A model generated the notes under the pieces. The model worked only from the letters and a program-made list of their open reading frames with translations, ran no database searches and had not been told where the DNA came from. A stretch of 64,000 bases of DNA from Parcubacteria group bacterium Greene0714_7 (lineage in GTDB: Bacteria; Patescibacteriota; Minisyncoccia; Phycocordibacterales; Phycocordibacteraceae), in NCBI GenBank assembly GCA_007378985.1, contig VMHB01000005.1, positions 9,235 to 73,234 on the forward strand, read 5' to 3'. Made by a program: the position numbers and the translations under genes. Shown here piece after piece: positions 9,532-56,697 of the stretch. The first letter of the stretch is position 1. Each line of letters opens with the position of its first letter.

Positions 9532-12500
9532 ATGTCTTCGTTCTCCCACCTTTCCGCACACAGCCACTACAGCCTACTCGACGGCATTATTCAGATAGAT
9601 GCACTTGTAAGCTCAGCCATGTTCTTTGGCATGCCTGCGCTCGCACTAACTGACCACAATAACCTCTACGGTGCTATTGAGTTTTACAAAGCCTGCAAAC
9701 AGGCTGGGATCAAGCCTATCCTTGGTGTTGACGCAGACATCCTTATTGGTGACACTGAAGACCATATAATTTTTCTTGCAGAAAATAATGAAGGATATCA
9801 GCACCTCTTAAAGCTGGTATCTCACGCCTATCTTGATCTATCAAAAGAAACAGACGGAAACGCTCTACCAAAAGTAACTGCCGAGCACATACAAAAATAT
9901 GGCAAAGGTTTGATTGCACTCATTCCAGACACCGCACTCGTGCGACGAAATTCTGAAGCTCTTGTAGAAACACTTAGGCAAGGACTCGGAAAAGAAAATG
10001 TGTACGCACGCTTAGGATGGAATGGTGGCAGAGACCAACAAATCCGCATCGCTGGCATAGCAACAGCCCTTGCACTTCCTATGGTAGCTTCAGACGATTC
10101 TTACTATCTAAAATCCGAAGACCGACAAGCTCGCGACATCGTGCGAAGAATCGCAACACCAGGGATTACCGCAGACACTCGAGATCTTACTTTTTGTAGC
10201 GTTGAGAGTGCGCAAGAACATTATCGTGATTTTCCTGAAGCGCTTCTCAACACAGAAAAAATTGCCGAACGAATAACGGTAGATTTGAATTTAGGCTCAT
10301 GGCTTTTCCCGCGCTTCCCTATTCCTAAGGGAACAACATACGAGAGTGAATTAAAAGTTGCAATTGCAAAAGGTTTGATTGAACGAGGTATGGAAGCAAC
10401 TGAGGAGGTAACAAAGCGTATCGACTATGAACTTTCAATAATCACCGCAAAAGGCTTCGCACCCTATTTCCTCACCGTCGCCGACCTACTTTCGCATGCA
10501 CGAACTAACGGCATCCTCACTACCACTCGAGGTTCAGCTGCTGGCTCGTTAGTTTCATACCTCACTGGTATTACCAATGTTGACCCTATTAGCTACCGTT
10601 TGCCCTTTGAACGATTCTTGAACCCCGAGCGCCCATCAGCGCCCGACATCGACATGGACTTTGCAGACAATCGTCGTGACGAGATGCTGGTGTACGCAAA
10701 AGAGAAATACGGGGAAGAATGCGTGGCACAAATTGGTACCTTTGGCACCATGATGGCGCGCGCAGCGGTACGAGATGTCGCACGCGCACTTGGCTATCCC
10801 TACGGCGTGGGTGACAGAATTGCGAAACTCATTCCACTCGGCTCGCAAGGTTTTCCCATGACGCTTAAAAAAGCTCTGGAGATGGAAGACGAATTGAAGA
10901 AATTATACAAGTCTGACGAAGATGCTGAAATAATTATAAATACCGCAAAACAAGTTGAGGGTAACGCTCGGCATATTTCCATTCACGCAGCAGGTATAGT
11001 CATTGCGCCATCTGCAGTTTCTGACTTCGTGCCAGTACAATTTGAACCCTCAGGAAGTGCCATCATTACCCAATACGACATGCATGAAGTTGAAGATGCA
11101 GGTCTTTTGAAATTCGACTTTCTTGGACTCACCAACCTTTCAATTCTTGGCGATTCGGTTGAACGCGTAAAAATACGAAAAGGTGTAGAAGTTGATATTG
11201 AAAACATTCCGCTTGATGACGCAAAAACATTTGCCATGCTCGCCCGCGGAGAAACGGGGGGAGTATTTCAGCTTGGAGGCTCAGGTATGACGCATTACTT
11301 GAAAGATCTAAAGCCAACATCCATTCACGACATCAACGCCATGGTGGCTTTGTATCGCCCTGGACCGATGGAGTCAATTCCTCAATATATTGAACGAAAG
11401 CATAATCCTGCACTCGTCACCTACTTAGATCCTCGCATGAAAGACATTCTTGACCGCTCGTACGGCATCATCACCTATCAAGACGATGTGCTCCTTATTG
11501 CTATTCATCTCGCAGGATACACATGGCTGGAAGCAGACCAACTCCGCAAAGCCATGGGTAAAAAAATTCCTGTAGAAATGGAAGCGCAAAAGGAAAAATT
11601 TATTCAAGGATGCGTTGAAAAAGGAAAAATACAAAAAACAAAAGCAGAAAGCTTGTGGAAGTTGATTGAGCCATTTGCAGCATACGGCTTCAACAAAGGC
11701 CATGCTGCATCATACGGAAAAGTTGCCTATCAAACGGCATACATGAAGGCAAATCATCCCGAAGATTACATGGCATCACTCTTGTCGGCTGACTCTGGAG
11801 ACACCGAACGCATCGCTGATGATGTTGCTGAATGTGAACGAATTGGCATTAGGGTGTTACCTCCCGACATAAATGAATCATATGAATCATTTACTGTTAT
11901 TGCCCATGGAATGATTCGCTTCGGACTCTCAACAATAAAAAACTTCGGCGAAGGCGCAGCAAAAACAATTATTGAGGAGCGCACACGCGGAGGAAAATTT
12001 ACCTCGATAGGAGACGTGCTGTCTCGAGTTCCTGGAAGCATTATCAACCGCAGAGCCTTGGAGTCCCTTATAAAATGCGGTGTCTTTGATGCATTCAACA
12101 ATCGGGGGATCTTACTTGCGAACATTGAAAAACTACTCCTTTTTGCAAAAGATGCTGGCGCAACATCCGCAGGACAAGACTCTTTATTTGGAACAATGGT
12201 ACGGCACACCGATATCGCACTTGATCCAGCTCGCGCGCTTTCGCAAATTGAAATGCTCAATTCAGAAAAAGAACTCTTAGGTATTTATGTATCCGGACAT
12301 CCGCTCGATCAATTTAAAGCTGAACTTGCAAAATATCCCCACTCAATTAAATTCGCCCGTGCAGAAGAGAGAAATGGCTATCCACTCACCGTGTGTGGTG
12401 TTATTGAAAGTATAAAAACGATTCTCACCAAAAAGGGTGACAAAATGGCATTTATCACTATCAGTGATAAAGACGGATTTATAGAAACAGTAGCGTTCCC

Positions 12501-12624
12501 TGAGGTCTACAAAACAAACGCTAGCGTGCTAGTGGAAGGCACATGCATACTCTTTAAAGGCAAGCTATCAAAGCGAAACGGCGAACCTTCAGTGTTAATC
12601 GATAAAGTGAAAGCACTGAGTTAG
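9532..12624 (+). CDS. dnaE: DNA polymerase III alpha subunit (1030 aa, compact)
   Basis: PHP domain HLSAHSHYSLLDGI; polymerase core motifs; OB-fold C-terminus. Confidence 0.9.
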   Translation: MSSFSHLSAHSHYSLLDGIIQIDALVSSAMFFGMPALALTDHNNLYGAIEFYKACKQAGIKPILGVDADILIGDTEDHIIFLAENNEGYQHLLKLVSHAYLDLSKETDGNALPKVTAEHIQKYGKGLIALIPDTALVRRNSEALVETLRQGLGKENVYARLGWNGGRDQQIRIAGIATALALPMVASDDSYYLKSEDRQARDIVRRIATPGITADTRDLTFCSVESAQEHYRDFPEALLNTEKIAERITVDLNLGSWLFPRFPIPKGTTYESELKVAIAKGLIERGMEATEEVTKRIDYELSIITAKGFAPYFLTVADLLSHARTNGILTTTRGSAAGSLVSYLTGITNVDPISYRLPFERFLNPERPSAPDIDMDFADNRRDEMLVYAKEKYGEECVAQIGTFGTMMARAAVRDVARALGYPYGVGDRIAKLIPLGSQGFPMTLKKALEMEDELKKLYKSDEDAEIIINTAKQVEGNARHISIHAAGIVIAPSAVSDFVPVQFEPSGSAIITQYDMHEVEDAGLLKFDFLGLTNLSILGDSVERVKIRKGVEVDIENIPLDDAKTFAMLARGETGGVFQLGGSGMTHYLKDLKPTSIHDINAMVALYRPGPMESIPQYIERKHNPALVTYLDPRMKDILDRSYGIITYQDDVLLIAIHLAGYTWLEADQLRKAMGKKIPVEMEAQKEKFIQGCVEKGKIQKTKAESLWKLIEPFAAYGFNKGHAASYGKVAYQTAYMKANHPEDYMASLLSADSGDTERIADDVAECERIGIRVLPPDINESYESFTVIAHGMIRFGLSTIKNFGEGAAKTIIEERTRGGKFTSIGDVLSRVPGSIINRRALESLIKCGVFDAFNNRGILLANIEKLLLFAKDAGATSAGQDSLFGTMVRHTDIALDPARALSQIEMLNSEKELLGIYVSGHPLDQFKAELAKYPHSIKFARAEERNGYPLTVCGVIESIKTILTKKGDKMAFITISDKDGFIETVAFPEVYKTNASVLVEGTCILFKGKLSKRNGEPSVLIDKVKALS

Positions 12625-12706
12625 GTTATAGCTTCTAGGTGCTAGGTTCTAGGTTTAAATTCAGCATCCGAAAAGCTAGCACCTAGAAGCTAGTCCCTAG
12701 AACCTG
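12621..12706 (+). repeat. inverted pair of 7-bp-periodic TAGGT/TAGCT arrays flanking an 18-nt spacer, between dnaE and thrS
   Basis: ttaggttatagcttctaggtgctaggttctaggttt ... gctagcacctagaagctagtccctagaacctg. Confidence 0.6.
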
Positions 12707-12728
12707 CCCTCTGTGGTATATTTTCAAA

Positions 12729-14474
12729 ATGCCTCAGGAACTTGAATACAAGCGCCATACTCTTGCCCATCTTATGGCAGCAGCGATTATGAATATCTGG
12801 CCTGACGCTAAGCGTACTATTGGCCCTGCTATAGATGACGGATTTTATTTTGATTTTGAATTTAGAGCCCCCCTTTCTGAAAAGGATTTCACTAAGATTG
12901 AGAAGGAGATGCGCAAACTCTTGCCGAGCTGGAAAGCCTTTGAACGATCTGAACTTACTCGAGACGAAGCAAAAAAAGAATATCCCGGAAACCCTTACAA
13001 ACATGAACTGATAGACGAGTTTACTGCCGACGGCTCTAAGGTAAGTTTCTACAAGTCAGGCGAATACTCTGACCTCTGCCGTGGAGGACATGTTGAAAAC
13101 CCAAGTATTGATATCAAACCTGATTCTTTCAAGCTCGATCGCATTGCAGGAGCATATTGGCGTGGCGATGAGAAAAATCCAATGTTAACTCGCATCTACG
13201 CACTCGCATTCGACACAAAAGAAGACCTCGAAGCGTATTTGGTACGACGTGAAGAAGCTAAAAAGCGTGACCATCGAAAAATTGCACGAGAGCAAGGACT
13301 TCTCGTTTTTTCTGATCTTGTTGGTTCAGGCATGCCACTCTTCACACCAAAAGGAAATATCATCCGATCCGAGATAATCAATCTTTCGCGCGAACTTAAT
13401 GATGAACTCGGATTTGGTGAAGTGCATACACCAAATATGAATAAGGGTGAGCTATTCAAAATTTCTGGCCACTATGACAAATACAAAGAGGACATGCTCC
13501 AAGTTGAGTCTCAGTATGTTGAAGACGAGATGTTCTTAAAGCCAATGAACTGCCCACAGCACACGCAAATTTATGCCGCGCAGCCTCGCAGTTACCGTGA
13601 CCTTCCTACTCGCTACAGCGACTTTGCTGTTCTCTATCGTGACGAACGCCCTGGTGAGCTTTCAGGGTTAACACGACTTCGTGCATTCTCACAAGACGAT
13701 GGACACATCTTTTGTCGAGAAGACCAAGTAGAAGAAGAAATATCTAATGTACTCAATGCGATCCAAAAGATTTTAAAAATTTACCAGATTGATTACTGGA
13801 TGCGCCTTTCGCTCCGCGACCCAGCTAAAAAAGAAAAGTACCTCGGGGGTGATGAGGTATGGGAAAAATCTGAGCCAATAATGCGCACACTCTTACAGAA
13901 AAAAGAAATTAACTTCAAAGAAGCTGTAGGAGACGCTGCGTTTTATGGCCCAAAGATAGACATTATGGCAGTTGATGCAATTGGCCGTGAGTGGCAGATT
14001 TCAACAATTCAACTCGACTTCAACATGCCTGGGCGCTTTGAGCTCGCCTACATGGACAAAGATGGAGTAGAAAAAACTCCCGTCATGATTCACCGAGCAC
14101 TCATAGGCTCTCCTGACAGATTCATGGGAGTACTTATTGAGCACTATGCTGGGGCATTTCCTCTCTGGCTTTCACCCATACAAGTCAAAGTGCTTCCTAT
14201 TTCTGAAAAACACAATGAGTACGGACACAAAGTTCTTGCTGAGCTAAAGACTGCAGGAATTCGAGCTGAAATTGACGATGCCAATGAGTCGCTCGGCAAA
14301 AAAATCCGCAATGCAAAAAAAGAAAAAACTCCCTACCTTTTTGTGGTGGGAGATAAAGAAGTTGAGGAAGGCACTGTGTCTGTAGAAAACCGCACAACCT
14401 CAGGAGGTACAAAGCCACTCAAAGAAGTTATTGCTTTCCTCTCACAACAAATCTCTTCTCGCGCTAGTGACTAA
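12729..14474 (+). CDS. thrS: threonyl-tRNA synthetase (lacks N-terminal TGS extension)
   Basis: 581 aa; class II aaRS core with HRKIAREQGLLVFSD, MNCPQH, anticodon-binding C-term. Confidence 0.9.
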   Translation: MPQELEYKRHTLAHLMAAAIMNIWPDAKRTIGPAIDDGFYFDFEFRAPLSEKDFTKIEKEMRKLLPSWKAFERSELTRDEAKKEYPGNPYKHELIDEFTADGSKVSFYKSGEYSDLCRGGHVENPSIDIKPDSFKLDRIAGAYWRGDEKNPMLTRIYALAFDTKEDLEAYLVRREEAKKRDHRKIAREQGLLVFSDLVGSGMPLFTPKGNIIRSEIINLSRELNDELGFGEVHTPNMNKGELFKISGHYDKYKEDMLQVESQYVEDEMFLKPMNCPQHTQIYAAQPRSYRDLPTRYSDFAVLYRDERPGELSGLTRLRAFSQDDGHIFCREDQVEEEISNVLNAIQKILKIYQIDYWMRLSLRDPAKKEKYLGGDEVWEKSEPIMRTLLQKKEINFKEAVGDAAFYGPKIDIMAVDAIGREWQISTIQLDFNMPGRFELAYMDKDGVEKTPVMIHRALIGSPDRFMGVLIEHYAGAFPLWLSPIQVKVLPISEKHNEYGHKVLAELKTAGIRAEIDDANESLGKKIRNAKKEKTPYLFVVGDKEVEEGTVSVENRTTSGGTKPLKEVIAFLSQQISSRASD

Positions 14475-14536
14475 CCAGAGTCTCACCTGGGTCTCATTTA
14501 GAATGTAACGCGGGAGACTAAAAAATTATCATGTGA

Positions 14537-14564
14537 CTCCATATACGATATATCGTATATGGAG
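14537..14564 (+). repeat. 28-nt perfect palindrome ctccATATACGATATATCGTATATggag (copy 1 of 3)
   Basis: Read directly; the same 20-nt core recurs at ~35251 and ~35691. Confidence 0.7.
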
Positions 14565-14726
14565 TGAGCTACTGTGTGCTGTTGCCATATACGAACCTAT
14601 CGCAACGATAATTCTCTGTATGATATATCATACAGAGAATTCATTTCACTATAGTGAAAATCCCCCACATGGGAGACACACGATGTCTGCCATGACTATC
14701 CCTGTGCACCGGAGGTTGCACAGGGA

Positions 14727-14897
14727 TTAGTAAGGGGAACTGGCTCCAATTTTTTTCAGAAATTCTTCTACCGCAGCCTTGGGAGCTCGGCTTATAAAGT
14801 CTAGGAAGTCTGCGTACCTACTACTCCCCTTACCAAGACCCCACCAGACATTTACTAGTTGCTCTTGAGTTACTGGTTTAGGAGTTTCTTGTGTCAT
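14727..14897 (-). CDS. hypothetical 56-aa protein (MTQETPKPVTQEQLVNVWWGLGKGSSRYADFLDFISRAPKAAVEEFLKKIGASSPY)
   Basis: Hand translation; stop followed immediately by a perfect 10-bp hairpin; below ORF-track cutoff. Confidence 0.2.
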   Translation of the reverse strand: MTQETPKPVTQEQLVNVWWGLGKGSSRYADFLDFISRAPKAAVEEFLKKIGASSPY

Positions 14898-15165
14898 ATT
14901 GTTTTTATGTATTTATACTAAACCCAGATGTAGCACAAAATCTTAATGGGTTTTAGAAAGGTAAATTTCTTCCTGTTTCTTTTCTGAATTCATCTCTTGC
15001 CTTCCGTTGATCATTAGTAGAGAGTCGATAAAACGGATCTGCTAAATCTGTATCTCTGAGAGCACCCTCAAGCACTAGATCAAGAATCTCTAAGAAATAA
15101 GTCCAAACACTTATTATTTTCTCTCCCTTATGTATCTGCCCCATAAAGAATAATTATCTTTTTTA

Positions 15166-16341
15166 TTAGCCAACAACCTCAAAGGCTTGAGCGAGAGCGA
15201 GCTTCACACCAGTAAATGGTGAAGCGTATACAGTGTCGAGAGAGTGCGTGAAGATGTTCACCAAGTGTGCAAGTTGCTCATCTGAGAGATGCGTTGCAGC
15301 ATCTGCAAGAGAGACATCAACAGCAGGACGGCTGTCTCTACGAGTGCGATACAGAGTATCGAGGGCAACAGCTGTTGAAGTCATGAGTGCAGTTGGACTC
15401 ATTCCGTCATGCTCAAAAGAACGCATAACACTGAAGGCAACATCGCGGTTACCTGAAACAACAGCGCTAGCAAACTGAGATGCGGCAACACTATCAACTG
15501 GACTCTTAACTACTACATCTATCGGAGCACCGACTGGTGTAGCAATTGGGAATGCAGAAGCCGTTGGAGGAGCGATACTTACACCCTGATCCATATTTCT
15601 AAGATCAGCAAAACGATCAGTGGTAAGCATAACCCAACCATTTTCTCGAGGAATTGTACGCACCGCTTCATTCAAGATATTTCCAAACACACGAAGTGAT
15701 TCTGCTCTGTCTGTTGAGATCGAAGTTGCGAGGGTGACTGCTTCTGGCGACATTAATACACCGGCTGCGTGTGCGCGAGATTCAATGACATCAGCAATGT
15801 TTGGAATACCATCAATTGCAGGTGCTGGCGAGCGTGCAGGTGCAACTGGAGCAACGGCTGTAAACAAATGTTCAACAGGGATAGATACCTCTTCTGTTTT
15901 TGTAGGTGACACAGCGCGTGCCTGATGCATTACTAAAGCATCAGGAGTTGGATACGGAGTTCCGTATACCTCCTCGCGTGCATGTTCATGTCTTTCAGCC
16001 GGAGTTTCTGGTCGAGCATGAGGAGTGGTGTTTGTATATCCCATCACAAATCTAATACCTCGTTTCCCCGCCACGATATATGCAATAAGTGCAGAGAAAA
16101 GTCCTATAGCAAGCCAGAAGAAAAAGGTAAGTGCTGGTCCTGCATCAAACCCAGTATATGGAATCTGTGAAAGCGAGATGAATGCCAACGGTTGATTGGA
16201 TGGTTGCTTATAGAGAACAACATTAGGAGGGTTGAGTCCCCCACCACAGTTACTGGTACAACCCGTAGGAGCGACCGTCACAGTCTTTTGACATGACACT
16301 GTGCCCAATATAGGTTGTATCGGATGGTGGGAACAGCTCAA
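15166..16341 (-). CDS. C-terminal part of the Ig-repeat surface protein (frameshifted continuation of 16250..18886), holding an IPYTG sorting-signal-like segment, a TM helix, KRGIR, and ~300 aa downstream
   Basis: N-term QKTVTVAPTGCTS continues the repeat pattern of the upstream ORF; QIPYTGF + 20 hydrophobic residues + KRGIR resembles an LPXTG cell-wall sorting signal. Confidence 0.5.
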   Translation of the reverse strand: MSCSHHPIQPILGTVSCQKTVTVAPTGCTSNCGGGLNPPNVVLYKQPSNQPLAFISLSQIPYTGFDAGPALTFFFWLAIGLFSALIAYIVAGKRGIRFVMGYTNTTPHARPETPAERHEHAREEVYGTPYPTPDALVMHQARAVSPTKTEEVSIPVEHLFTAVAPVAPARSPAPAIDGIPNIADVIESRAHAAGVLMSPEAVTLATSISTDRAESLRVFGNILNEAVRTIPRENGWVMLTTDRFADLRNMDQGVSIAPPTASAFPIATPVGAPIDVVVKSPVDSVAASQFASAVVSGNRDVAFSVMRSFEHDGMSPTALMTSTAVALDTLYRTRRDSRPAVDVSLADAATHLSDEQLAHLVNIFTHSLDTVYASPFTGVKLALAQAFEVVG

Positions 16342-18886
16342 TGGAGCCTCCCGAAACTGGGCTCACTGAACCTATTCCTCCAGTTATAGAACCACTTGTG
16401 GCATTAACTGATGTCCATGAAACAGTAACACTTTCACCTGTCCTTATTGAAGACCGAGAAACTGAAATCGTACATGCAGGTCCTGGGGTGGTGACTGTAA
16501 TAGTTGTCTGACAAGTATTGATTCCACCGAATGGGCTTGTTACTGTCATCGTGTAGGTAACAGTGCTCGAAACAGATACTGCAGTTGCCCCTGAAATAAC
16601 TGGAGTCACTGCACCAACACCGTGGTCAATCGAAGCCACGAGTGCATTGGTTGTTGTCCATGAAAGCGCTGACGCATCACCCGCATTCACAGACGAAGGT
16701 GTAGCAGTCAAAGTACATGCAGGTGTTGCAGGTGGTGTTACGACAACTGTCTGCTGACAGGTAACAGTTCCACCTGGACCCGTTGCGGTAAGTGCATAGG
16801 TGGTAGAAGAAGTTGGCGAAACTGATTGAGAACTATTTGCGGTCACTGTGCCGATACCCTGAGTTATAACAACAGAAGTAGCGTTCGTTGTAGTCCAAGA
16901 CAATACTGATGAACCTCCTGGAGCAATGGTTGTTGGGTTTGCATTCAGCGTACAGGTAGGAGCAGGGTTTGGTGTTACGGTAACATTCACGCCACAAAGC
17001 ACCGTACCTCCAGGACCCGTTGCGGTGAGACTATAGGTATGTGTGCCGACACCAAGCGCTGGAACAAAGTTGTAGAAACCTGAGAGTGCCAAGGGTGTTG
17101 GAATTGTAGGTGACGCAGTTGTTGGAATAATGGTAACGGAAGTTGCATTCGTTGTAGTCCAACTAATTTGATCCTTTGATAAGTCGAGCGAACACACCGG
17201 CATTGGTGAGACAGTGACAGTAATTATTTTTTGACAGGTAACTGTTCCACCAGGGCCTGTTGCGGTAAGAACATACGTTGTCGTTGAAGACGGACTCACA
17301 CTTCTCGAACCATTCGTTGCAACCGCACCAACGCCTGGTGCAATGCTTACTGAAGTTGCATTTGCGGTCGTCCACGAGAGTGTTGCAGACGCCCCGGAAA
17401 GAATAGTTGAGGCTGATGCAGTAAGACTACATGTTGGTGGAGGATTTGCTGAAACTGTAATTGTCTTTTGACAAGTAACAGTACCTCCTGCGCCCGTTGC
17501 CGTAAGCGTGTATGTCTTTGTAACAGTAGGCGAAATAGTGACTGAGCCATTGGCAGTAGAAAGCGAACCAACACCTTGATCAATAGAGAATGTAGTTGCA
17601 TTTGCTGTCGTCCACGAAAGTATCGAGGAAGCACCAGTAATAATAGAAGCTGGGTTGGCATCAAGAGTACAGGCCGGAGTAGAAGGCGGTGGGTCAATAT
17701 GGATAGTACCGATACAAATAACTATTCCTCCAGCACCTGTTGCAGTGAGCGTATACGAATGAGTACCTACGCCAAGATTGGGATTAAAATTATATGAACC
17801 GTTTAATGCAGGTGAAGGAACAGTCGGTGACCCTGTGGTCGACACAAGTGTAAGTGAGGTTGCATTCGTCGTTGTCCAAGAAATAGAGGTCGGAGAAAAA
17901 TCCAACATACATACTGGCGGTGGTGGTGGAATAACGGTAATTCCTTGCGCACACGTAACCGTGCCACCAGGGCCCGTTGCCGTAAGCGTATAGACTGTTG
18001 AAGTCGTTGGCGAAACAGATGTTGAACCTGAAGTCGCTACCCCACCAATACCCTGATTGATTGAAATAGATGTTGCATTAGTTGTAGTCCACGAAAGAGT
18101 CGAAGACCCACCACCTGTAATAGAGGTTGGATTGGCACTCAAGGTACAAGTCGGTGCAGGTTCTGGTGTAATCGTTACCGTCACTGCACACAGTACTGTT
18201 CCACCAGGACCCGTCGCAACGAGATTATACGAATGTGTACCGGAACCAAGCGGAGGAACAAAGTTGTAAGAGCCTGAAAGTCCATAGGGACCCGGAACTA
18301 CGGGAGAGCCTGCTGTAATTGTATTGATAGTTACTGATGTTGCATTAGTGGTGCTCCAAATGAGGTGATCTTTAGAAAGATCAGCGGAACAAACAGGGGT
18401 CGGTGGCACAATAACAACAACAGTTTGATCGCAAATCACTGTGCCATGCGAGCCAGTACCTCTGAGTGTGTAGGTAGTTGTCACTGAAGGAGCAATCAAT
18501 GTAGAGCCGTTCGTAGCAACAGATCCGACTCCATTATCAATGGAGACTGAAGTTACACCAGATGTAATCCAAGAAAGCGTCACACCTTGCCCTGGGCCAA
18601 CAGGATTTCCGCTGACACTAAGGACGCATGATGGAGAATAGCTACCGCCACCACCGCCTCCCCCTCCGCCACCACCGCCGTCTCGCTGTACCGTATAGTT
18701 CCAAACCCAAGAGCCATGACCACAACCACCACAACCTCCTGCAGCATCTGCAGTAATGGAGCTTGTATCAAAAGATATCTGTAGGGCATCAATAGAAAAC
18801 CATGCGCCAGCAAAAACCGCGATACTCGCAAGGATGATGAATGCAGTTTTTTGTACAATACTTGGTTTCATAATGATGTTATTCAT
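16250..18886 (-). CDS. secreted surface protein with signal peptide, poly-Gly tract, and ~9 tandem ~90-aa Ig-like repeats (...LSWTTTNATS...TVTCQKTITV...)
   Basis: 878 aa; hydrophobic N-terminus; periodic repeats; overlaps the next ORF by 92 nt in another frame, suggesting a frameshift. Confidence 0.6.
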   Translation of the reverse strand: MNNIIMKPSIVQKTAFIILASIAVFAGAWFSIDALQISFDTSSITADAAGGCGGCGHGSWVWNYTVQRDGGGGGGGGGGGGSYSPSCVLSVSGNPVGPGQGVTLSWITSGVTSVSIDNGVGSVATNGSTLIAPSVTTTYTLRGTGSHGTVICDQTVVVIVPPTPVCSADLSKDHLIWSTTNATSVTINTITAGSPVVPGPYGLSGSYNFVPPLGSGTHSYNLVATGPGGTVLCAVTVTITPEPAPTCTLSANPTSITGGGSSTLSWTTTNATSISINQGIGGVATSGSTSVSPTTSTVYTLTATGPGGTVTCAQGITVIPPPPPVCMLDFSPTSISWTTTNATSLTLVSTTGSPTVPSPALNGSYNFNPNLGVGTHSYTLTATGAGGIVICIGTIHIDPPPSTPACTLDANPASIITGASSILSWTTANATTFSIDQGVGSLSTANGSVTISPTVTKTYTLTATGAGGTVTCQKTITVSANPPPTCSLTASASTILSGASATLSWTTANATSVSIAPGVGAVATNGSRSVSPSSTTTYVLTATGPGGTVTCQKIITVTVSPMPVCSLDLSKDQISWTTTNATSVTIIPTTASPTIPTPLALSGFYNFVPALGVGTHTYSLTATGPGGTVLCGVNVTVTPNPAPTCTLNANPTTIAPGGSSVLSWTTTNATSVVITQGIGTVTANSSQSVSPTSSTTYALTATGPGGTVTCQQTVVVTPPATPACTLTATPSSVNAGDASALSWTTTNALVASIDHGVGAVTPVISGATAVSVSSTVTYTMTVTSPFGGINTCQTTITVTTPGPACTISVSRSSIRTGESVTVSWTSVNATSGSITGGIGSVSPVSGGSIELFPPSDTTYIGHSVMSKDCDGRSYGLYQ

Positions 18887-18895
18887 AAAAATTAA

Positions 18896-19675
18896 TTAAA
18901 CGCGTGTGATGCTAATGGGTTCTTCGAAAGTAAACTCTGCTTCAACGACATAACGTTTTGTTTTTTGTTTACCAAACGAATCGCAGGTAACCAAAGTAAG
19001 AGTTCTTGCCCCACCACCAATCTGTATTTCGGCATCACCTGCATCAACATATGAAATTGAAGTCACGCGATAGTGATAGTTAGTAGTTGCCGACGATACA
19101 ATCACATCATCTCCCGCACGAACATTTTGCAAACTGTTAAATGCCTTGAACGCCTGATTCTTCACCACTGGTAAATAACTTTGATGTCCAAAAATAAGCA
19201 TGGGAGCATTCTCGCCAAGGAGTGCTGAGGTAGGATAACGGACTGCACCTTTAAGAAGTGCGGTATCGAGCCCACTCACCGTAGTGGTGTTTGGGTTATT
19301 GACTGGAGTATCAATACCAACTTTCGGTATCGTAACTCTGAGTGGTGCATTAGTATCAGAGGCGTATGCAATTGTGTGTGCCACTGGAGCTACAGTATTT
19401 TTAGTGGCACTCAGAGATTCCGTAGTACGGATTGGCTCTGAGGCACTCAAAGTAACTACAGAAGCCTCTGCAACGCTTGCGGTATTACTTGAAGTTGGAG
19501 ATTCTGGAACAAAATCAATTGCAAAAAGAAACACCGATACAACAAAAAACACAATCAGAAAGATTGCAAGAAACTCCCACGGCCGTGAGGTTATTCGTCT
19601 ATGTTTCGGAGTGTCATTTTTAATCATAGTGAAAAAATCATTTGTTCCGAAAGCTGTTGCAGTGCCTTGGGTCAT
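18896..19675 (-). CDS. sortase family transpeptidase
   Basis: 259 aa; N-terminal TM; LIFGHQSY...; TLVTCDSF with catalytic Cys in the TLxTC signature. Confidence 0.8.
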   Translation of the reverse strand: MTQGTATAFGTNDFFTMIKNDTPKHRRITSRPWEFLAIFLIVFFVVSVFLFAIDFVPESPTSSNTASVAEASVVTLSASEPIRTTESLSATKNTVAPVAHTIAYASDTNAPLRVTIPKVGIDTPVNNPNTTTVSGLDTALLKGAVRYPTSALLGENAPMLIFGHQSYLPVVKNQAFKAFNSLQNVRAGDDVIVSSATTNYHYRVTSISYVDAGDAEIQIGGGARTLTLVTCDSFGKQKTKRYVVEAEFTFEEPISITRV

Positions 19676-19720
19676 GTTCTTTCATAATACATCACAAATC
19701 TAGATTTGTCAAATCACTCA

Positions 19721-22210
19721 TTATTGCGCCCTTCTAAGATCTGGGAAATCTCCTACGGAGCCATCTCTAGGTCGAGCTGTCTCAGTAATGCCTTCACGGA
19801 GAAACTGGAAGATAACTTTTGGTGAGCCATCAGGGTTTCTGTATGCTGCTGCCCCATCTGGATGCGCTGGCGTTGTGTGTAGTTCTTCATAGAAATGCAA
19901 CCAACGACCTAGTTCGCGGATTTGCTCATCACTCAAGATTCCACCAAATTCTGCTTTCAATGCTACAAATCGCACTCCTTCAGTACGGCCCTGAATGAAA
20001 GCCTCAGGAATCCTTGAAAGAAATGTTCTCTCAAGAACTGCTTGTGCATTTGACGATCCTCCCTCTTGAGGAATAATATCGTTTCCAATCAAATACATTT
20101 GATTATTAACAACATCATTTAAGGTACGGCCAATTTCATTTGCTTCCAAGATGCCATTGCCATTTATATCAATACCTGGAACGAAACGATTAGGTCTACC
20201 ATCACCATCTGGATCTACGGCAAAAAGTGGTATCGGATCTTTAGGACTGAGAACACTAATATCAGAGCCGCGGGCAGTGCGTGCACCACCAGTCATCCTC
20301 CATTCTTCACTCGTGCCAGTAACCAAACCGTCAAACTGCTCAGCTGTACGAACAACCTCTGTTCCTCTGTCGGTTACAATAGTTGGTTGAGAGAACTGAT
20401 TGTTTTCAAGATTCAAACAGTGGAAAGTATCTGTTCCTGTGAGGTTGTTGTGAAATCGGAGATACACAAACTTGTAGTCCATGTTTTTTTGGTAATCAAC
20501 CCACGCTGAACGCTCGCTGAGCGCTCTGATCATATACTGACGAGCCTCCTCAAGACTTTCACCTCTGTATTCAAGTATGCGAAGATTCGTAACCTTCATT
20601 TCTGGACCACACGAAGTACAGTCTGAAGCTACAAAGCCAGATTGTTCCGACCAAATAACGCGAGGCACAACAAGTACCGGTCTTTCTGGTGTTGGCGGAG
20701 GCACAAATGCTTCCGGTGGTGGTGCCGTAACTACGGTACTATCGCTATAAAGAGAAAAGTTATAACAATCTTGTTCACCAGAACCATCGGCTTTACCTAT
20801 TGGTATTTCAACCATGACCTCATGCAAAACACCACGTGCATCAGTGTACGAAAAAGGCATTTTTAACGCACGGTATACCGGAGGGTGTTCACCTCTAAAG
20901 CCAGGCTCTCTACTCGCATCAAAAAGAACTCTGTCGATACCATCACCGAGCACGCTGGGGACACCGCGAGTCCTAAATGCCTGCGCTTCCCACTCTCTCC
21001 TAGTAAAATCAACGAACTCCGGACTCTGATTGTTCTTAAAAGCATTTGCTGCTGCAATAAATTCTTCGCGTGCCTCAGGATTCATACCGCCTCGAATCAA
21101 CACGTCTGCCGCTTCACTAATGGAGCGAGGACTCAGTGCTTCTGTGAGACTTCTAGCCCATGGAGCACTTCCGAAATGTGTAATGAGTTGTGTTCGTCCT
21201 ACCTCAGGCGCTCCGCCTGTAGCTGTTTCTATAACTGCACTGCCTGTGCCAGTTGGAACATAACCCGCTCGTACTACTCCTTGCGAACCAGGAGCATGCA
21301 TCTCTGCCGCTGCTGCAGGACCTCCAAGTAATCCCTGTAACGCAACACCAGCTGCTACACCAACCTTTTGCATAAAATCTTGAAATGCCCCAGTACCATG
21401 AGCCAAATAGTCTGCCCATCCTTGCTCCAAACCTATGTGATGTAATCCAGCATCAACACCCTTAGAAGCCCACTGTCCTGCCGAGTGACCAACATGATCT
21501 GGTGTCAATACACCAGTTGTAATAACTGTCGCGGTAGTAAATCCAAGAGAAGCTACTAAGCGAGCGAGTCGTCTGCGTCCTATTGATTTTGCACGGCTAC
21601 GTAGAAGCTCTCGATTTTCTTTCTTAAAATCTTCAATAGTCTGCCCTGCTTTACGCGCAGCAAGTTCTTTTGATGCATACTCTTCTCGAATTCCTTTTGC
21701 TACAGGTTTAATTGCAAAATGCGATGCGACTCCAAAACCTGCACCTGCGGCAACCATTGCATACAAACTCGTGCCACCTAAGTGAAAAGCTGCAGCAAGC
21801 GGTGCAGCAGCCACTGCAGGCACTGCAATACTACCGACAGCAACAGTTGCAGACATCTGCTCTGGAGTAATGTGTTTTCCTGCAATACTTAAATACGGTC
21901 TTGCTTTCCAACTTTCTGCACCCACTGCTCGCTCCGCCGCATCAAGACCTTCTGTTTGAAAAATAAATTGCTTGTACGCTTGAAATGCTGCGCGATATTT
22001 CTGACGAGCTATTACGACCGCTGGATCTGTGTCATTTTTTGCTTTTACAAATACATCATGATAAATCGCTCTCGTAACCTTCACTGGTGCATATGCAGAA
22101 TCTTTGGCTGCACGAGCACGCTCACGCTGGAGTGCGCTTTCAGATTTTCTACGATTGCCCTTTTGATTGGCAATCTCTCGCGGAGCTTCTTCTGCTAAAT
22201 GTGTCGACAT
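19721..22210 (-). CDS. large membrane protein of unknown function with dockerin/EF-hand-like Ca-binding loop (DPDGDG...DINGNG)
   Basis: ORF extends to 22330, but MSTHLAEE at 22210 has an AAGGA upstream and is the likelier start; two hydrophobic segments; no catalytic motif recognised. Confidence 0.45.
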   Translation of the reverse strand: MSTHLAEEAPREIANQKGNRRKSESALQRERARAAKDSAYAPVKVTRAIYHDVFVKAKNDTDPAVVIARQKYRAAFQAYKQFIFQTEGLDAAERAVGAESWKARPYLSIAGKHITPEQMSATVAVGSIAVPAVAAAPLAAAFHLGGTSLYAMVAAGAGFGVASHFAIKPVAKGIREEYASKELAARKAGQTIEDFKKENRELLRSRAKSIGRRRLARLVASLGFTTATVITTGVLTPDHVGHSAGQWASKGVDAGLHHIGLEQGWADYLAHGTGAFQDFMQKVGVAAGVALQGLLGGPAAAAEMHAPGSQGVVRAGYVPTGTGSAVIETATGGAPEVGRTQLITHFGSAPWARSLTEALSPRSISEAADVLIRGGMNPEAREEFIAAANAFKNNQSPEFVDFTRREWEAQAFRTRGVPSVLGDGIDRVLFDASREPGFRGEHPPVYRALKMPFSYTDARGVLHEVMVEIPIGKADGSGEQDCYNFSLYSDSTVVTAPPPEAFVPPPTPERPVLVVPRVIWSEQSGFVASDCTSCGPEMKVTNLRILEYRGESLEEARQYMIRALSERSAWVDYQKNMDYKFVYLRFHNNLTGTDTFHCLNLENNQFSQPTIVTDRGTEVVRTAEQFDGLVTGTSEEWRMTGGARTARGSDISVLSPKDPIPLFAVDPDGDGRPNRFVPGIDINGNGILEANEIGRTLNDVVNNQMYLIGNDIIPQEGGSSNAQAVLERTFLSRIPEAFIQGRTEGVRFVALKAEFGGILSDEQIRELGRWLHFYEELHTTPAHPDGAAAYRNPDGSPKVIFQFLREGITETARPRDGSVGDFPDLRRAQ

Positions 22211-22395
22211 AATTATTTTATATTCCTTAAAAAATGTATGAAAATCCCGATTGGGAATTATTGAGACAGTATCACGCTTAAATGGCTTTGTCAAGTCTGG
22301 TAATGGGCACCTTTCATAGCCGTCTAACATTCAGAGTAATTACGAGAAGGATTAGAAGCTTGACAAGAGCAATCTTATATGATATACAGTGTTTT

Positions 22396-23454
22396 ATGGA
22401 AAACGATTTAAAAAAGACCCAGTCACGCCTCGGGGGCGTTGCAGTACGAGCTCTTGCCATTTTTGGCTTTCTCGCAATTATTATTGTAGGTATGTGGGGC
22501 TCTGTGCAGGTGGCGCGCGGTATCCCAAATGCATTCTCATCATTCGCATCAGCGATTGTGAGCTTTACTTCAATCTTCGTTCCTGCGGGAGAAAAGATTG
22601 CTCTTTCAGCACCTTCGCTCACTATCAATTCAAGCGAACCATTTGTACTTTCATGGACACATGAGAAGAAGAGCATCGAGGGTTCATATACATTCCGCTA
22701 CAACTGTGCGGACGGCGTATCATTCATGAGCGCTTCAACAACGGTCTACTGTAATGTTCCTTTCAATTTCACACACTCAAGCAACCAAATAACTCTCACT
22801 CCCCTTTCAACTAATAACCGATTCGTCGATGTGCAAGTCTTCATCGACTTCACACCAAACGGCGCAAATCGTCCTACTGTTACTGGGCAAACAACATTCA
22901 CTATTCAAAACACAGGAAATGCAACAAGCCCAGGAACGCTCACTCCTACAACTCCAGTAACAACAACACCAACTCCTACAACGCCTGTAGTAACAACCCC
23001 TCGTCCAGTGACCGCAGGCCCAACACAAACTCAGGTCTACCCAATCAACGGAGGTGTAGGTGTCTCTAACCCAAATGGCTATGTTGACCTCACTGCACGC
23101 ATTCTTGAAATTGGTGTCGTGGATAAAAGTTCTGGTGTCTTTACCGCAAGCTCAACTCCAAGCCGTACAAACACTCGTATTGCAGTTCGCTTTGCAGTCG
23201 AAAACATTGGTACAAAAACCTCACCTGAGTTTGACTTCAATGCAGTACTTCCAACACTCCCTGCAAACATCTTCTCAGCACCACTTCAGCAAGCTCTTGC
23301 CCCTGGTGACCGTATTGAATTCACTGTAGGATTTGACAGCTTTGACGCTTCAAAGCCAGACGGACTCTTCGTGGTAAATATTGATCCTGCAGGTCGCATC
23401 AACGAGCGCAACAAGGACAACAACATCGTGAGATACACGATCACAACGAGATAA
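22396..23454 (+). CDS. membrane-anchored protein with Thr/Pro-rich linker and C-terminal CARDB-like domain
   Basis: Start MENDL...; TM helix; TTPTPTTPVVTTP linker; C-term ...NERNKDNN typical of CARDB. Confidence 0.55.
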   Translation: MENDLKKTQSRLGGVAVRALAIFGFLAIIIVGMWGSVQVARGIPNAFSSFASAIVSFTSIFVPAGEKIALSAPSLTINSSEPFVLSWTHEKKSIEGSYTFRYNCADGVSFMSASTTVYCNVPFNFTHSSNQITLTPLSTNNRFVDVQVFIDFTPNGANRPTVTGQTTFTIQNTGNATSPGTLTPTTPVTTTPTPTTPVVTTPRPVTAGPTQTQVYPINGGVGVSNPNGYVDLTARILEIGVVDKSSGVFTASSTPSRTNTRIAVRFAVENIGTKTSPEFDFNAVLPTLPANIFSAPLQQALAPGDRIEFTVGFDSFDASKPDGLFVVNIDPAGRINERNKDNNIVRYTITTR

Positions 23455-23465
23455 TCTGAAGAAGG

Positions 23466-23498
23466 TTTTAGGTGCTAGCTTATAGGTTATAGCTTTTA
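23466..23498 (+). repeat. 7-bp periodic TAGGT/TAGCT array
   Basis: ttaggtgctagcttataggttatagctttt. Confidence 0.55.
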
Positions 23499-23510
23499 AG
23501 AAAGAAAAAT

Positions 23511-23669
23511 ATGACTGACCTCAATAAAGATAAGTCTCCTGTTCGGCAAGAGAAAGAAACCTGTAAAGGCTGTAGTGGTACTGGAGCGATAGAAATGTTT
23601 TCTGTGTACAAAAAATGCCAGAGGTGTAAAGGAACCGGTAAATCCTATCCATATTCACTAGACGATTAA
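23511..23669 (+). CDS. mini zinc-finger protein, 52 aa, two CxxCxGxG motifs (DnaJ CR-type-like)
   Basis: MTDLNKDKSPVRQEKETCKGCSGTGAIEMFSVYKKCQRCKGTGKSYPYSLDD; paralog 100 nt downstream with the same 5' leader and 3' element. Confidence 0.45.
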   Translation: MTDLNKDKSPVRQEKETCKGCSGTGAIEMFSVYKKCQRCKGTGKSYPYSLDD

Positions 23670-24185: not shown

Positions 24186-26288
24186 CTATATATCGAGTGT
24201 TGCTGCTTTGGCGTTTGATTGAATAAATGATTTACGCGCAGGAACATCCGTACCCATAAGGATGTCGAATACTCTGTCAGCATCTTGCCCATCTTCAACC
24301 TTCACTTGTTTCAACACACGGCGAGTAGGATCCATAGTAGTCTCCCAGAGCTCTTCTGGGTTCATTTCACCAAGTCCTTTGTAGCGTTGAATAGTTGGCT
24401 TTGCTTGTTTTTTTGTTGCCTTACTTTCAACCTGTTCTTCTGTTTCTTCCTCATCAACTTCCTCCAAAGATTCCTCGGTATTGAACTCCTCGCTCTTGAT
24501 ACCACGAGCCTTTAGAAGATCCTCCAACTCTGCTTCAGTTTGCAAGTAGAAAACTTCCTTCCCAAACTTTGCTTTAAAGAGTGGTGGCTGTGCAATATAC
24601 AAGAATCCGCCGTCAATGACTCCACGGAAATAACGATAAAAGAGTGTCAAAAGAAGTGTGCGAATATGGGCACCGTCAACATCGGCATCGGTTGCAATGA
24701 TTATCTTATGGTAACGAAGTTTTGAAATATCAAACAAATCCCCTATTGCAGTACCCATAGCAATAACGAGATTTTTAATTTCATTTGATGCAAGCATTTT
24801 ATCCAAGCGTGCGCGCTCAACATTCAAAATCTTTCCACGAAGCGGAAGTATTGCCTGTGTACGCCTATCCCGTCCCTGCTTTGATGAGCCCCCTGCTGAA
24901 TCTCCTTCCACAATGAATATCTCAGATTCCCATGCGTTCTTTGTCTGGCAGTCAGCAAGCTTACCGGGCAATGTCATGCCATCCAAGGCACCTTTGCGAA
25001 GCACTGAGTCTTTTGCAGCTTTTGCAGCTTTACGAGCTTTGAGTGCGAGAAGCACCTTCCCAATGATTGAACGCGCTTCATCGGGATGCTCTTCCAAGAA
25101 TATGTTAAACGCTTCACTGAAAACATTCTCAACTGCACCGCGTGCTTCAACTGAACCAAGTTTTCCTTTCGTTTGACCTTCAAATTGAATCTCGCGAAGC
25201 TTAACTGAAATGATGCAGGTAAGTCCTTCCAAAACATCCTCTCCAGTAAAATTTTCATCAGCTTCTTTAACGATATTGTTTTTCCGAGCATAGGTATTGA
25301 GTGTGCGTGTCAAGGCAGTTTTGAAACCAGTAACATGCGTTCCTCCTTCTGCGTTATAGGTGTTGTTAGCAAATGCCGTGATGCGTGCAGAAATATCATC
25401 AACATACTGCAACGCAACTTCTACCTGTACATCGTCCACTTCTTTCTCAACATAAAAAACACTATTGTGAACAGGTTTCTGAAAGCGATTATTAAAGATT
25501 ACAAGTGACTTGAGACCCCCTTCGAAATAAAATGTTTGCGACGGGACCAAGAACCCAAGTTCGCGAAAATAACGCACATCGGCAAGGTCAATTTTTCCCG
25601 GGTATTCACGTGCATCAACAATAGAAATACGCACTGCCTTCACGAGGTACGCCTGTTGGCGTAGGTGTTGCACTATTTTGTTAAAGTCATATTCAATAAC
25701 GGGGAAAATAGTTGGATCAGCCTCGAACGTTATGATAGAGCCTGTAAAATCGGTGGAGCCCACCTTCTTGACGCGAGCGCGAGCTTTGCCACGATCATAC
25801 TCTTGAAGATAGTAGCCACCGTCTTTATGTACTTCAGCTTTTGTATATGTTGATAGTGCATTAACGACTGATGCACCAACACCATGGAGTCCTCCTGACA
25901 CTTTGTAGCCATCACCACCAAATTTGCCACCGGCGTGCAGTGTCGTCATGATAGTCTCGAGTGCCGACACTTTAGTTGTCTTATGAATGTCAACGGGGAT
26001 ACCTCGACCGTTATCGATAACACGGATGCGATTATTGGGAAGTAGAGTTACTTCAATATCGTCCGCAAAACCACCCATCGCCTCGTCGCGTGAGTTATCG
26101 AATATTTCCCAAATGAGGTGATGCAAGCCGTCTAAACCAGTGGTACCGATGTACATTCCAGGACGCTTTCGTACCGGCTCAAGTCCCTCTAGAACAGTAA
26201 TGGATTCCGCACTGTACGTGCCCTCCTTAGCTTTAGCGGCGGAGGGTCCGTCTGATTTTTTAGCTTCTTTTTTAGGAGTTTTTGCCAT
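24186..26288 (-). CDS. gyrB: DNA gyrase subunit B
   Basis: 700 aa; GHKL ATPase, TOPRIM, acidic C-terminal tail; LHAGGKFGGDGYKVSGGLHGVG. Confidence 0.9.
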   Translation of the reverse strand: MAKTPKKEAKKSDGPSAAKAKEGTYSAESITVLEGLEPVRKRPGMYIGTTGLDGLHHLIWEIFDNSRDEAMGGFADDIEVTLLPNNRIRVIDNGRGIPVDIHKTTKVSALETIMTTLHAGGKFGGDGYKVSGGLHGVGASVVNALSTYTKAEVHKDGGYYLQEYDRGKARARVKKVGSTDFTGSIITFEADPTIFPVIEYDFNKIVQHLRQQAYLVKAVRISIVDAREYPGKIDLADVRYFRELGFLVPSQTFYFEGGLKSLVIFNNRFQKPVHNSVFYVEKEVDDVQVEVALQYVDDISARITAFANNTYNAEGGTHVTGFKTALTRTLNTYARKNNIVKEADENFTGEDVLEGLTCIISVKLREIQFEGQTKGKLGSVEARGAVENVFSEAFNIFLEEHPDEARSIIGKVLLALKARKAAKAAKDSVLRKGALDGMTLPGKLADCQTKNAWESEIFIVEGDSAGGSSKQGRDRRTQAILPLRGKILNVERARLDKMLASNEIKNLVIAMGTAIGDLFDISKLRYHKIIIATDADVDGAHIRTLLLTLFYRYFRGVIDGGFLYIAQPPLFKAKFGKEVFYLQTEAELEDLLKARGIKSEEFNTEESLEEVDEEETEEQVESKATKKQAKPTIQRYKGLGEMNPEELWETTMDPTRRVLKQVKVEDGQDADRVFDILMGTDVPARKSFIQSNAKAATLDI

Positions 26289-42435: not shown

Positions 42436-42514
42436 ACTGGAATAGTATCGTGAAATAAAAGAGGCGCTATCAAGCCTTGTGGACATTGCAATAGGGCTTC
42501 TGCAATTAAAATAG

Positions 42515-42675
42515 CTCGAGCATGTTTTGAAACCTCCCCCTACCTGGGAGCCGTTCATTTTCTATTCAACATTTCGTCTCGTACTCAATGTACCTACCAT
42601 TTCGGACTCCGACTCATGTCTCATCACGAAAATGAACGGCTCCGGTTCGGGTACCACGAGTTTCAAAACATGCTC
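42515..42675 (+). repeat. ~160-bp element bounded by ~48-nt imperfect inverted repeats (GAGCATGTTTTGAAAC...GAGCCGTTCATTTTC / GAAAATGAACGGCTCC...GTTTCAAAACATGCTC), MITE-like or large structured RNA
   Basis: Arms found by reverse-complementing; outer 16 nt and inner 15 nt match exactly, middle differs; abuts the stop of the 42675..44021 gene. Confidence 0.45.
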
Positions 42676-54727: not shown

Positions 54728-54917
54728 TTTCTATCTAATTCTATTACGCTTTTTGCAGAGCATATAACTTACTCAACAACAGAATTGGAATCAACGCCAG
54801 TGATCAGCCCCCATGTTGGGTTTACGAAACCCAACATTTGAAACGGGGGGGGTCGAACTGGTCGACATACGATGTCTGCCATGGGGGTGTTCATACTACT
54901 CATACTAAGGAGAGTTT

Positions 54918-56665: not shown

Positions 56666-56697
56666 GATGTCAAAGTAGCTGGTGCCCGTTGAAGTGG

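Follow-up and report, generated by a model that had tools for sequence, protein, structure and literature searches.

A surface protein encoded beside a sortase in Patescibacteria carries an internal sorting-type signal and a predicted clamp-loader-like cytoplasmic tail

A 64,000-nucleotide (nt) stretch of the genome of Parcubacteria group bacterium Greene0714_7 (assembly GCA_007378985.1, contig VMHB01000005.1, positions 9,235 to 73,234; hereafter the window) encodes a sortase and, directly downstream of it, a large repeat protein in which a sorting-type signal is followed by a conserved tail of about 300 residues. Four co-directional open reading frames (ORFs) lie on the minus strand in the order 869-aa gene, sortase, 878-aa ORF and 391-aa ORF, the same gene order and strand as given in an earlier note made from the sequence alone; the coordinates of these and other features are collected in Table 1. 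The 878-aa and 391-aa ORFs are the two halves of a single gene, referred to below as the substrate gene, which is interrupted in the window by a frameshift. The frameshift itself is ordinary. The combination of an internal sorting signal with a clamp-loader-like tail is a real, widespread and previously undescribed variant of sortase substrate in bacteria of the candidate phyla radiation (CPR).

The earlier note had joined the repeat ORF to the 391-aa ORF across an apparent frameshift, and had offered a choice between an artefact and a genuine post-signal domain. Comparison with related loci shows this to be a false choice: the lesion is real and so, independently of it, is the long tail. The two ORFs, whose coordinates were checked by translation, overlap by 92 nt, and the 391-aa ORF starts with the end of the tenth repeat (GTVSCQKTVTV). 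In a DNA alignment with locus L001, 20 nt (GAACATTCACTGGCCCTAAT) are missing from the window at 16305/16306, within repeat 10, removing the TFTGPN codons and part of the flanking Gly codons. The L001 protein, P0001, which is 97% identical and comes from another assembly, reads through this position (...PPSDTTYVGTFTGPNGTVSCQKTVTV...). With the 20 nt restored, the window gene becomes one continuous ORF of 1,246 aa, and in L004, L005 and L006, loci of species-representative genomes with 94%, 88% and 87% DNA identity to the window, the gene is a single ORF of approximately 1,247-1,273 codons from stop to stop.

The downstream half of the substrate gene encodes a stalk, the motif QIPYTG with its FDAGP extension, a membrane helix, the basic residues KRGIR and the tail; 327 residues follow the IPYTG motif and 294 follow KRGIR. 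Apart from IPYTG, no PxTG sequence in the entire 64 kb of the window precedes a hydrophobic helix. The description of this segment as a textbook cell wall sorting signal holds for the pentapeptide, the helix (of 23 residues, not the 20 first counted) and KRGIR, and fails for its position, which is not at the extreme C-terminus. The positive-inside rule predicts that the tail is cytoplasmic.

A scan for the pattern, with each species represented by a single genome, matched at least 189 Patescibacteria species; 80 loci were fetched and 84 loci were analysed. The species matched are nearly all labelled Patescibacteria/CPR (Paceibacterota/Parcubacteria, Kaiserbacteria, Nomurabacteria). A [VILM]P[YH]TG motif and a helix precede the tail in all 84 loci, and in 148 of 148 proteins with enough N-terminal sequence. 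The Pro, Thr and Gly of the motif, together with Phe at +4 and Gly at +7, are present in 84/84 loci, and Arg or Lys occupies +32 in 72/84. The logo over the loci reads L-[ST]-Q-[VI]-P-Y-T-G-F-[ED]-A-G-P-x-[LM]-T-x-x-F-[WY], followed by a helix with an invariant Tyr and by [RK][RK]. The stretch after the motif measures approximately 280-365 residues in nearly all loci, the exceptions being L003, which represents a truncated-tail lineage, and L034, which meets a contig end. Homologues, in proteins 400-1,900 aa long, align with 97% of the 391-aa ORF, and in 77 of the 84 loci the motif, helix and tail share one ORF with the ectodomain. A HMMER search with the cytoplasmic 234 residues returned 390 clusters at 50% identity, with the tail match at the extreme C-terminus in all of the 150 listed. 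Among the orthologues there is neither a stop codon directly after KRGIR with the remainder as a separate gene nor a pair of consistently separate ORFs. Thus, the signal is internal, as the earlier note had supposed, and the post-signal domain is real, being kept across the 84 loci and representing neither a missed stop nor a separate gene. Three short tail-only proteins (P0157, P0169 and P0218) were considered as natural forms without an ectodomain and rejected, as L084 and L085 reveal miscalled starts or truncations at contig ends. A second P[FY]TG sequence (ASPFTGVKLALAQAFE, 15178-15210, minus strand) is conserved at the very C-terminus of the family's cytoplasmic domain; it is on the side of the membrane opposite to a sortase and is probably there by chance, and it misled the regular expression in L022 and L023.

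AlphaFold2, run on the 391-aa ORF with a 67-sequence alignment, places after the membrane helix a disordered linker, a first folded module, a second disordered linker and a second folded module. The 50 best Foldseek matches of the tail are all clamp loaders, aligned over approximately 215 columns with a best E value of 2.7e-5 (the structural matches of Table 1 include subunits of several such complexes), and the order of the two modules, a lid (domain II) followed by a helical collar (domain III), is that of clamp loaders. In sequence, Pfam matches over 44 members of the tail family are weak, the commonest being DNA_pol3_gamma3 (four members, best E=8.4e-4), with further weak matches to DNA_pol3_delta_C, Hda_lid and Rep_fac_C; hhalign places module 2 on residues 243-359 of gamma, which is its domain III (P=0.037). 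No Walker A sequence occurs in the 289 residues after KRGIRF, and the region before the lid is the disordered linker of 78 residues; because there is thus neither a Walker A nor room for a core, the tail lacks the AAA+ ATPase core. The tail is therefore predicted, from the model, to adopt the fold of an AAA+ lid plus a clamp-loader collar. It is also modular, since P0019 (L003:10001-11905), P0020 and P0022 end after module 1, and in these lineages no separate downstream ORF encodes module 2. Neither the family hidden Markov model nor E. coli gamma, each searched against all ORFs of the 84 loci, detected a match, the former being used to look for paralogous clamp-loader genes.

The ectodomain begins with the signal-like segment that the earlier note had read as a signal peptide, found by inspection and hydropathy, and continues through the (Gly)12 tract, which lies at 18644-18679, into repeats of the immunoglobulin (Ig) type. 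The Ig-like fold stands, and the count of about nine rises to 10 on parsing of the repeats. An AlphaFold2 model of repeats 2 and 3 is all-beta (predicted local distance difference test score, pLDDT, of 93), with 13 strands across the two repeats, and Foldseek matched it to tandem PKD, Ig and BIg domains (SorCS2 PKD, titin Ig, LdtMt2 BIg, SiiE and GhpA), as expected of an Ig/PKD-like tandem beta-sandwich. No Pfam model matched the repeats at threshold, and no Pfam or NCBIfam family was assigned to either the 878-aa or the 391-aa ORF. Among homologues the ectodomains vary widely, comprising Ig-like repeats, SpaA-type, DUF11 or PKD domains, or low-complexity sequence alone, whereas the stalk, motif, helix and tail stay constant. 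The last case is L084 (4474-7122), where the ectodomain consists only of a signal peptide, (GGDSGSDA)n and Pro-rich sequence; in this locus a separate secreted protein of 344 aa is encoded between the sortase and the substrate gene. One extra same-strand ORF between the two genes is also found in L014, L017, L019, L032 and L040.

The 259-aa protein encoded upstream is a sortase with the TLVTC signature that the earlier note had pointed out. It matches Pfam PF04203 with 76.1 bits (cut-off 26.6; E=2.6e-21) and TIGR01076 with 46.9 bits (cut-off 39.35), and its LIFGHQ, TLVTC and KRYVV segments align with those of 4d70 and 8t28. The nearest solved structures are class D and class C enzymes (E of approximately 1e-6). 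The catalytic residues are kept among orthologues: His in 71/71, Cys in 70/71 and Arg in 70/71. Against the NCBIfam class models the enzyme scored below every matched cut-off (class C, 40.1/160; D, 38.4/165; SrtD, 37.2/140; GN, 36.9/158; E, 36.2/160; F, 25.7/166), and the class A and B models gave no match at E<=0.1, so that by these models it appears unclassified. Sortases are frequent in CPR bacteria (PMC6744442).

The sortase and the substrate are closely linked. Each of the 71 loci with enough flanking sequence has a same-strand sortase gene upstream, within 400 nt in 52 of them; in the other 19, either a split 5' piece of the substrate gene or one extra same-strand ORF lies between the sortase and the ORF. 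A CARDB homologue adjoins the sortase on the opposite strand in 69/71 loci, and is clearly upstream in 64. One lineage has lost part of this arrangement: L087 (2040-3059) and L088 (1645-2664; P0226) have no sortase, no PYTG motif and no ectodomain, and retain a protein with two transmembrane (TM) segments and the tail in the same syntenic place, between gyrB with a short CARDB gene on one side and thrS and dnaE on the other. This joint loss ties the PYTG motif to the sortase. That the tail survives suggests that it has a function independent of surface display. From these comparisons, the sortase and the bitopic (type I) surface protein encoded directly downstream appear to form a vertically inherited two-gene module of Patescibacteria (Paceibacteria/Parcubacteria), and the best reading is that the pair belongs to the core genome of these bacteria. 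The module is embedded in housekeeping genes, with gyrB upstream and a convergent thrS and dnaE downstream (9532-14474 and 24186-26288 in the window; also in L002, L003, L084 and L087). This block is conserved though the substrate proteins are just ~25% identical. The gene with the clamp-loader-like tail sits one gene from dnaE, which may be chance.

We propose, with a probability of roughly 0.6, that the neighbouring sortase cleaves the substrate at PYT|G and links its ectodomain to the wall, leaving behind a membrane-tethered, clamp-loader-like stub. The [VI]PxTG of the substrate fits known sortase pentapeptides. The substrate would be exported by Sec and retained by its membrane helix; on the outside of the membrane the sortase would cut PYTG between its Thr and Gly, with LSQIPYTGFEAGP as the candidate recognition peptide, and would hand the ectodomain to a peptidoglycan precursor. 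A wall of this kind is suggested by an SLT-type transglycosylase encoded in the window, which points to a cell that may make peptidoglycan. The stub, composed of Gly-FEAGP, the helix and the tail, would stay in the cell, where the most natural guess is that it oligomerises or docks a cytoplasmic partner, probably through its collar-like domain.

Several observations weigh against this proposal, and some of them favour its main rival, an unlikely reading in which the substrate is never cut. In that reading PYTG-FEAGP is a conserved hinge or juxtamembrane element, the protein is an intact transmembrane adhesin or receptor through which the Ig-like array is coupled to the tail, and the sortase is adjacent only through a frozen syntenic block or serves other substrates. 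The motif lies ~330 residues from the C-terminus rather than at the extreme C-terminus, and no NCBIfam model, a set that would include LPXTG-anchor models, matched the 391-aa ORF at E<=0.1. Conservation runs well past the pentapeptide: on the primed side of the scissile bond F+4, A+6, G+7, P+8, T+11 and F+14 are almost invariant. Sortase signals do not usually show such a pattern, and some other function next to the membrane could explain it. The adjacency of sortase and substrate is weaker evidence than it appears, because the whole gyrB-CARDB-sortase-substrate-thrS-dnaE block is syntenic in most loci and the gene order is in part simply inherited. In L089 (2-1628, on a 1.8-kb contig) an intact-looking sortase is followed by a tail protein, P0219, that has neither PYTG nor an ectodomain and is degenerate at the motif site (..LGDGPFF..), a counter-example to strict co-occurrence of sortase and motif. 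The specificity of the sortase cannot be calibrated, since 1.2 Mb of flanking DNA, scanned for canonical sorting signals at a C-terminus, yielded spurious ORFs alone. The tail assignment has its own difficulties: the hhalign probability of the tail against gamma is just 1.4%, PDB sequences gave no meaningful match to the tail in phmmer or in an hmmsearch with the family profile, and the resemblance of the predicted fold to clamp loaders appears to be mainly structural. Finally, so large and conserved a tail is easiest to understand if it is still joined to the ectodomain. Set against an uncut receptor, however, are the exact type of the pentapeptide and its place, just outside a TM helix with basic residues after it; the shared strand and the tiny gaps between the genes in 52/71 loci; the joint loss of sortase, motif and ectodomain in L087/L088; and the lack of any other candidate substrate near any of the 71 sortases.

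It is improbable that the enzyme instead acts as a class C-type pilus polymerase, linking the PYTG Thr to a Lys in another copy and building an Ig-like fibre in place of, or before, wall anchoring. The [VI]PxTG motif is typical of pilins, some homologues contain SpaA-type (PF17802) domains whose source labels are pilin-related, and class C and D sortases are the nearest solved relatives. However, neither a pilin-motif Lys nor a second pilin gene was identified, each locus has one sortase and one substrate, the ectodomains are extremely variable and extend to the low-complexity sequence of L084, and just seven Lys residues occur in the 880-residue ectodomain of the window protein.

The frame change raises two further alternatives, neither of which survives comparison with the orthologues. 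The ratio of nonsynonymous to synonymous substitution (dN/dS) against L004 is 0.07 upstream of the shift and 0.10 downstream, the latter from just 25 differences; the 3' part therefore shows no decay, so the lesion is very recent or an error. The 20-nt deletion appears to be private to the window copy and would be either a very recent lesion of this strain or an assembly error. Its 45-nt junction had no match in JGI metagenome contigs, and the exact product of the 878-aa ORF is not on record, nor is that of P0002. As written, the window gene would yield a secreted, anchorless fragment of 878 aa. The substrate gene is split in seven of the 84 loci, always inside the repeats and never between signal and tail; of the six besides the window, four are interrupted in the repeats by scaffold gaps, seen as runs of N, and true frameshifts occur in the other two, L002 and L016. 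The repeat-rich gene is hard to assemble. In L002 (9755-9944) an independent frameshift falls in the penultimate repeat at an equivalent position, the ..TFTGTA / ETTC.. loop of the last two strands, and this loop, with its GGN-ACN...GGN-ACN codons, may be a hotspot of deletion. A frame change that is programmed, by +1 ribosomal frameshifting or through a phase-variable switch, would agree with the intact downstream frame under purifying selection and with the true frameshifts in the ectodomain-coding part of L002 and L016, but we reject it as extremely improbable on the orthologue evidence: the 20 nt lost at the shift code for a conserved beta-strand loop that every relative has, the deletion site has no slippery sequence or homopolymer, close relatives need no shift, and the junction is absent from the metagenome contigs scanned. 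The idea that a separate gene or a missed stop accounts for the ~300 residues after KRGIR, the two ORFs being naturally separate, can draw on the two frames of the window gene and on the seven split loci, and is refuted by the shared ORF in the other 77, the single ORFs of L004-L006, the confinement of all seven splits to repeats and the scaffold gaps behind four of the other six.

If the substrate is cut at PYT|G as we propose, a further and more doubtful step is that cleavage deliberately makes two products, a fast-evolving adhesin linked to the wall and a membrane-tethered clamp-loader remnant that acts inside the cell. A core function of the tail itself would fit its fixed place one gene from dnaE and its survival where sortase and ectodomain are lost. 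Were this true, the remnant could form a collar-like ring or dock on the replisome or another AAA+ partner, and the cytoplasm of these bacteria, episymbionts with minimal genomes, could be informed of surface-protein maturation or host contact.

The 869-aa protein matches no family among the Pfam and NCBIfam models. Its dockerin/EF-hand-like loop, mentioned in the earlier note, is confirmed by an exact match to the PROSITE EF-hand pattern (DINGNGILEANE at residue 721, with DPDGDG directly before it); the accompanying reading of two TM segments is not, since a crude hydropathy scan gave one strong hydrophobic segment and not clearly two. Nor is its gene a conserved member of the operon that had been assumed. 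A homologue is present in just eight of the 84 loci, all close relatives, where it sits between the CARDB gene and the sortase, and a strong promoter-like site (TTGACA-17-TATTAT, the top such match in 14400-23600, by consensus alone) separates it from the sortase. Because of this restriction and of the promoter-like site that follows it, the conserved unit is the sortase and the substrate, with the CARDB neighbour; the 869-aa gene is a lineage-specific insertion outside it. The CARDB protein may be a third component of the sortase-substrate system. Its annotated start overlaps that of the 869-aa ORF by 49 nt, and the true start of one gene or of both is probably internal.

Elsewhere in the window, a secreted, Cys-rich repeat protein of 788 aa (39159-41525, minus strand) is kin to the ectodomain repeats and has a weak PKD_4 match; it lacks a PYTG, a membrane helix and the tail. 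The adjoining gene (41533-42558) encodes 341 aa without an assigned family. A run of large ORFs of 1,171, 1,122, 475 and 311 aa occupies 53412-63908 on the minus strand, with a G+C content of 0.49-0.52 against 0.42-0.47 in the remainder of the window and weak matches to Bact_surface_Ig-like, Peptidase_S74 (endosialidase chaperone) and Gly_rich_2. The 1,171- and 1,122-aa ORFs are without a family and overlap one another by ~200 nt. Together these ORFs could form a cluster for a giant surface fibre or for something like a phage tail fibre.

Table 1. Features of the sortase-substrate locus in window coordinates, followed by structural matches of the predicted tail with the value of each match
Feature	Position	Strand	Remarks
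Substrate gene, 5' part, 878-codon ORF	16250-18886	-	ends at premature TAA 16250-16252, product of the frameshift
Signal-peptide-like N-terminus, MNNIIMKPSIVQKTAFIILASIAVFAGAWFSIDA	18785-18886	-	by inspection of sequence and hydropathy
(Gly)12 tract	18644-18679	-	mixed GGN codons, no homopolymer
Ig/PKD-like repeats 1-9	16484-18637	-	~80 aa each, a Cys pair each, two alternating sequence types
Repeat 10	16273-16483	-	bears the 20-nt deletion at 16305/16306
Substrate gene, 3' part, 391-codon ORF	15166-16341	-	+1 frame; stalk, motif, TM helix, cytoplasmic tail
Stalk, APTGCTSNCGGGLNPPNVVLYKQPSNQPLAFISLSQ	16165-16272	-	conserved in homologues
QIPYTG with FDAGP extension (IPYTG-FDAGP)	16135-16164 (IPYTG 16150-16164)	-	sortase-type motif
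TM helix, ALTFFFWLAIGLFSALIAYIVAG, 23 hydrophobic residues	16066-16134	-	hydropathy; AlphaFold2 helix at residues 69-103 of the 391-aa ORF
KRGIR, basic stop-transfer residues	16051-16065	-	tail predicted cytoplasmic by positive-inside rule
Linker, Pro/Glu/Ala-rich, 78 residues	15817-16050	-	predicted disordered, AlphaFold2 pLDDT 45-57
Module 1, AAA+ lid-like	15586-15816	-	motifs IESRAHAAGVLMSPEA and PRE(D/N)GW; residues 176-252, pLDDT ~96
Module 2, six-helix, clamp-loader domain III (collar)-like	15169-15492	-	motifs SGNR..AF and PFTGVKLALAQAFE; residues 284-390, pLDDT ~96
Sortase, membrane-anchored, 259 aa	18896-19675	-	N-terminal TM; His (LIFGHQ), Cys (TLVTC), Arg (KRYVV)
Promoter-like site, TTGACA-17-TATTAT	19684-19712	-	11/12 consensus match; in 45-nt gap directly upstream of sortase start
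869-aa protein	19721-22330	-	EF-hand-like loop; lineage-specific insertion
CARDB protein, single TM, C-terminal CARDB domain	22282-23454	+	Pfam CARDB E=1.1e-7; divergent transcription
Tail match: Pol III tau, 8gj0_B			14.0
Tail match: B. subtilis delta, 3zh9_B			12.3
Tail match: RFC small subunit, 1iqp_A			11.1
Tail match: E. coli delta, 1jqj_C			10.0
Tail match: delta', 8val_E			9.8

The family formed by the stalk, motif, helix and tail has no Pfam or NCBIfam model, and our searches of the literature on PYTG and sortase, on sortases in Parcubacteria, Patescibacteria or CPR bacteria, and on C-pep found no description of this architecture. Predictors and curated models of sorting signals generally assume a C-terminal signal, so that such a family was likely to be missed; no curated model matched it. 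In a large class of CPR bacteria, whose envelopes and host attachment are poorly understood, it looks like a principal sortase substrate and may be the sole one. Two new domain families are defined here, a stalk-PYTGFEAGP-TM anchor module and a lid-plus-collar tail. If the proposed cleavage is true, this is, to our knowledge, the first sortase substrate that leaves a large folded cytoplasmic domain behind, and the tail would be an unexpected exaptation of clamp-loader domains II-III. Additionally, a sortase with a new and very tightly defined recognition sequence may be of use in protein ligation.

LPXTG-type sorting signals and their sortases are exemplified by SrtA and protein A of S. aureus, and the corresponding pilin signals by IPQTG and VPDTG of S. 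pneumoniae RrgB and RrgC. The system described here resembles these in that the substrate has a signal peptide and a [VI]PxTG followed by a hydrophobic helix and basic residues, with a His-Cys-Arg sortase encoded next door. It differs in the position of the signal, ~330 residues from the C-terminus rather than within the last 35-40; in the invariant primed side (G-F-E-A-G-P..T..F); in a sortase that falls under the matched class cut-offs (C, D, E, F and GN) and has no match to class A or B; and in its host, a Patescibacterium rather than a Firmicute or an Actinobacterium. A second parallel is the class GN 'marine' sortase of TIGR03784, which forms a dedicated pair of one sortase and one adjacent target. 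As in those pairs, a single sortase lies beside a single cognate substrate and the pair is kept across many genomes, whereas the enzyme scores just 36.9 bits against the TIGR03784 cut-off of 158, the target family is unrelated, and the signal is internal with a folded cytoplasmic domain after it.

The tail shares with clamp loaders (DnaX, HolA, HolB and the RFC small subunits) the fold and order of its modules, an AAA+ lid (II) and then a collar (III), and weak sequence matches to PF12169, PF21694 and PF08542. Unlike them, it lacks domain I, having neither a Walker A nor a P-loop fold, is tethered to the membrane behind a surface protein, has its two modules separated by a disordered linker, and shows 6-17% sequence identity. 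A precedent for function in the membrane remnant that sortase cleavage leaves behind is provided by Streptococcus gordonii, in which, according to the summary of Hall et al. 2019 in PMC11326707, this remnant of sortase substrates (the 'C-peptide') acts as a signal. The S. gordonii remnant, as described there, is the sorting signal alone, of ~30 residues, and is sensed by a histidine kinase, whereas the remnant proposed here would carry a folded cytoplasmic domain of ~300 residues.

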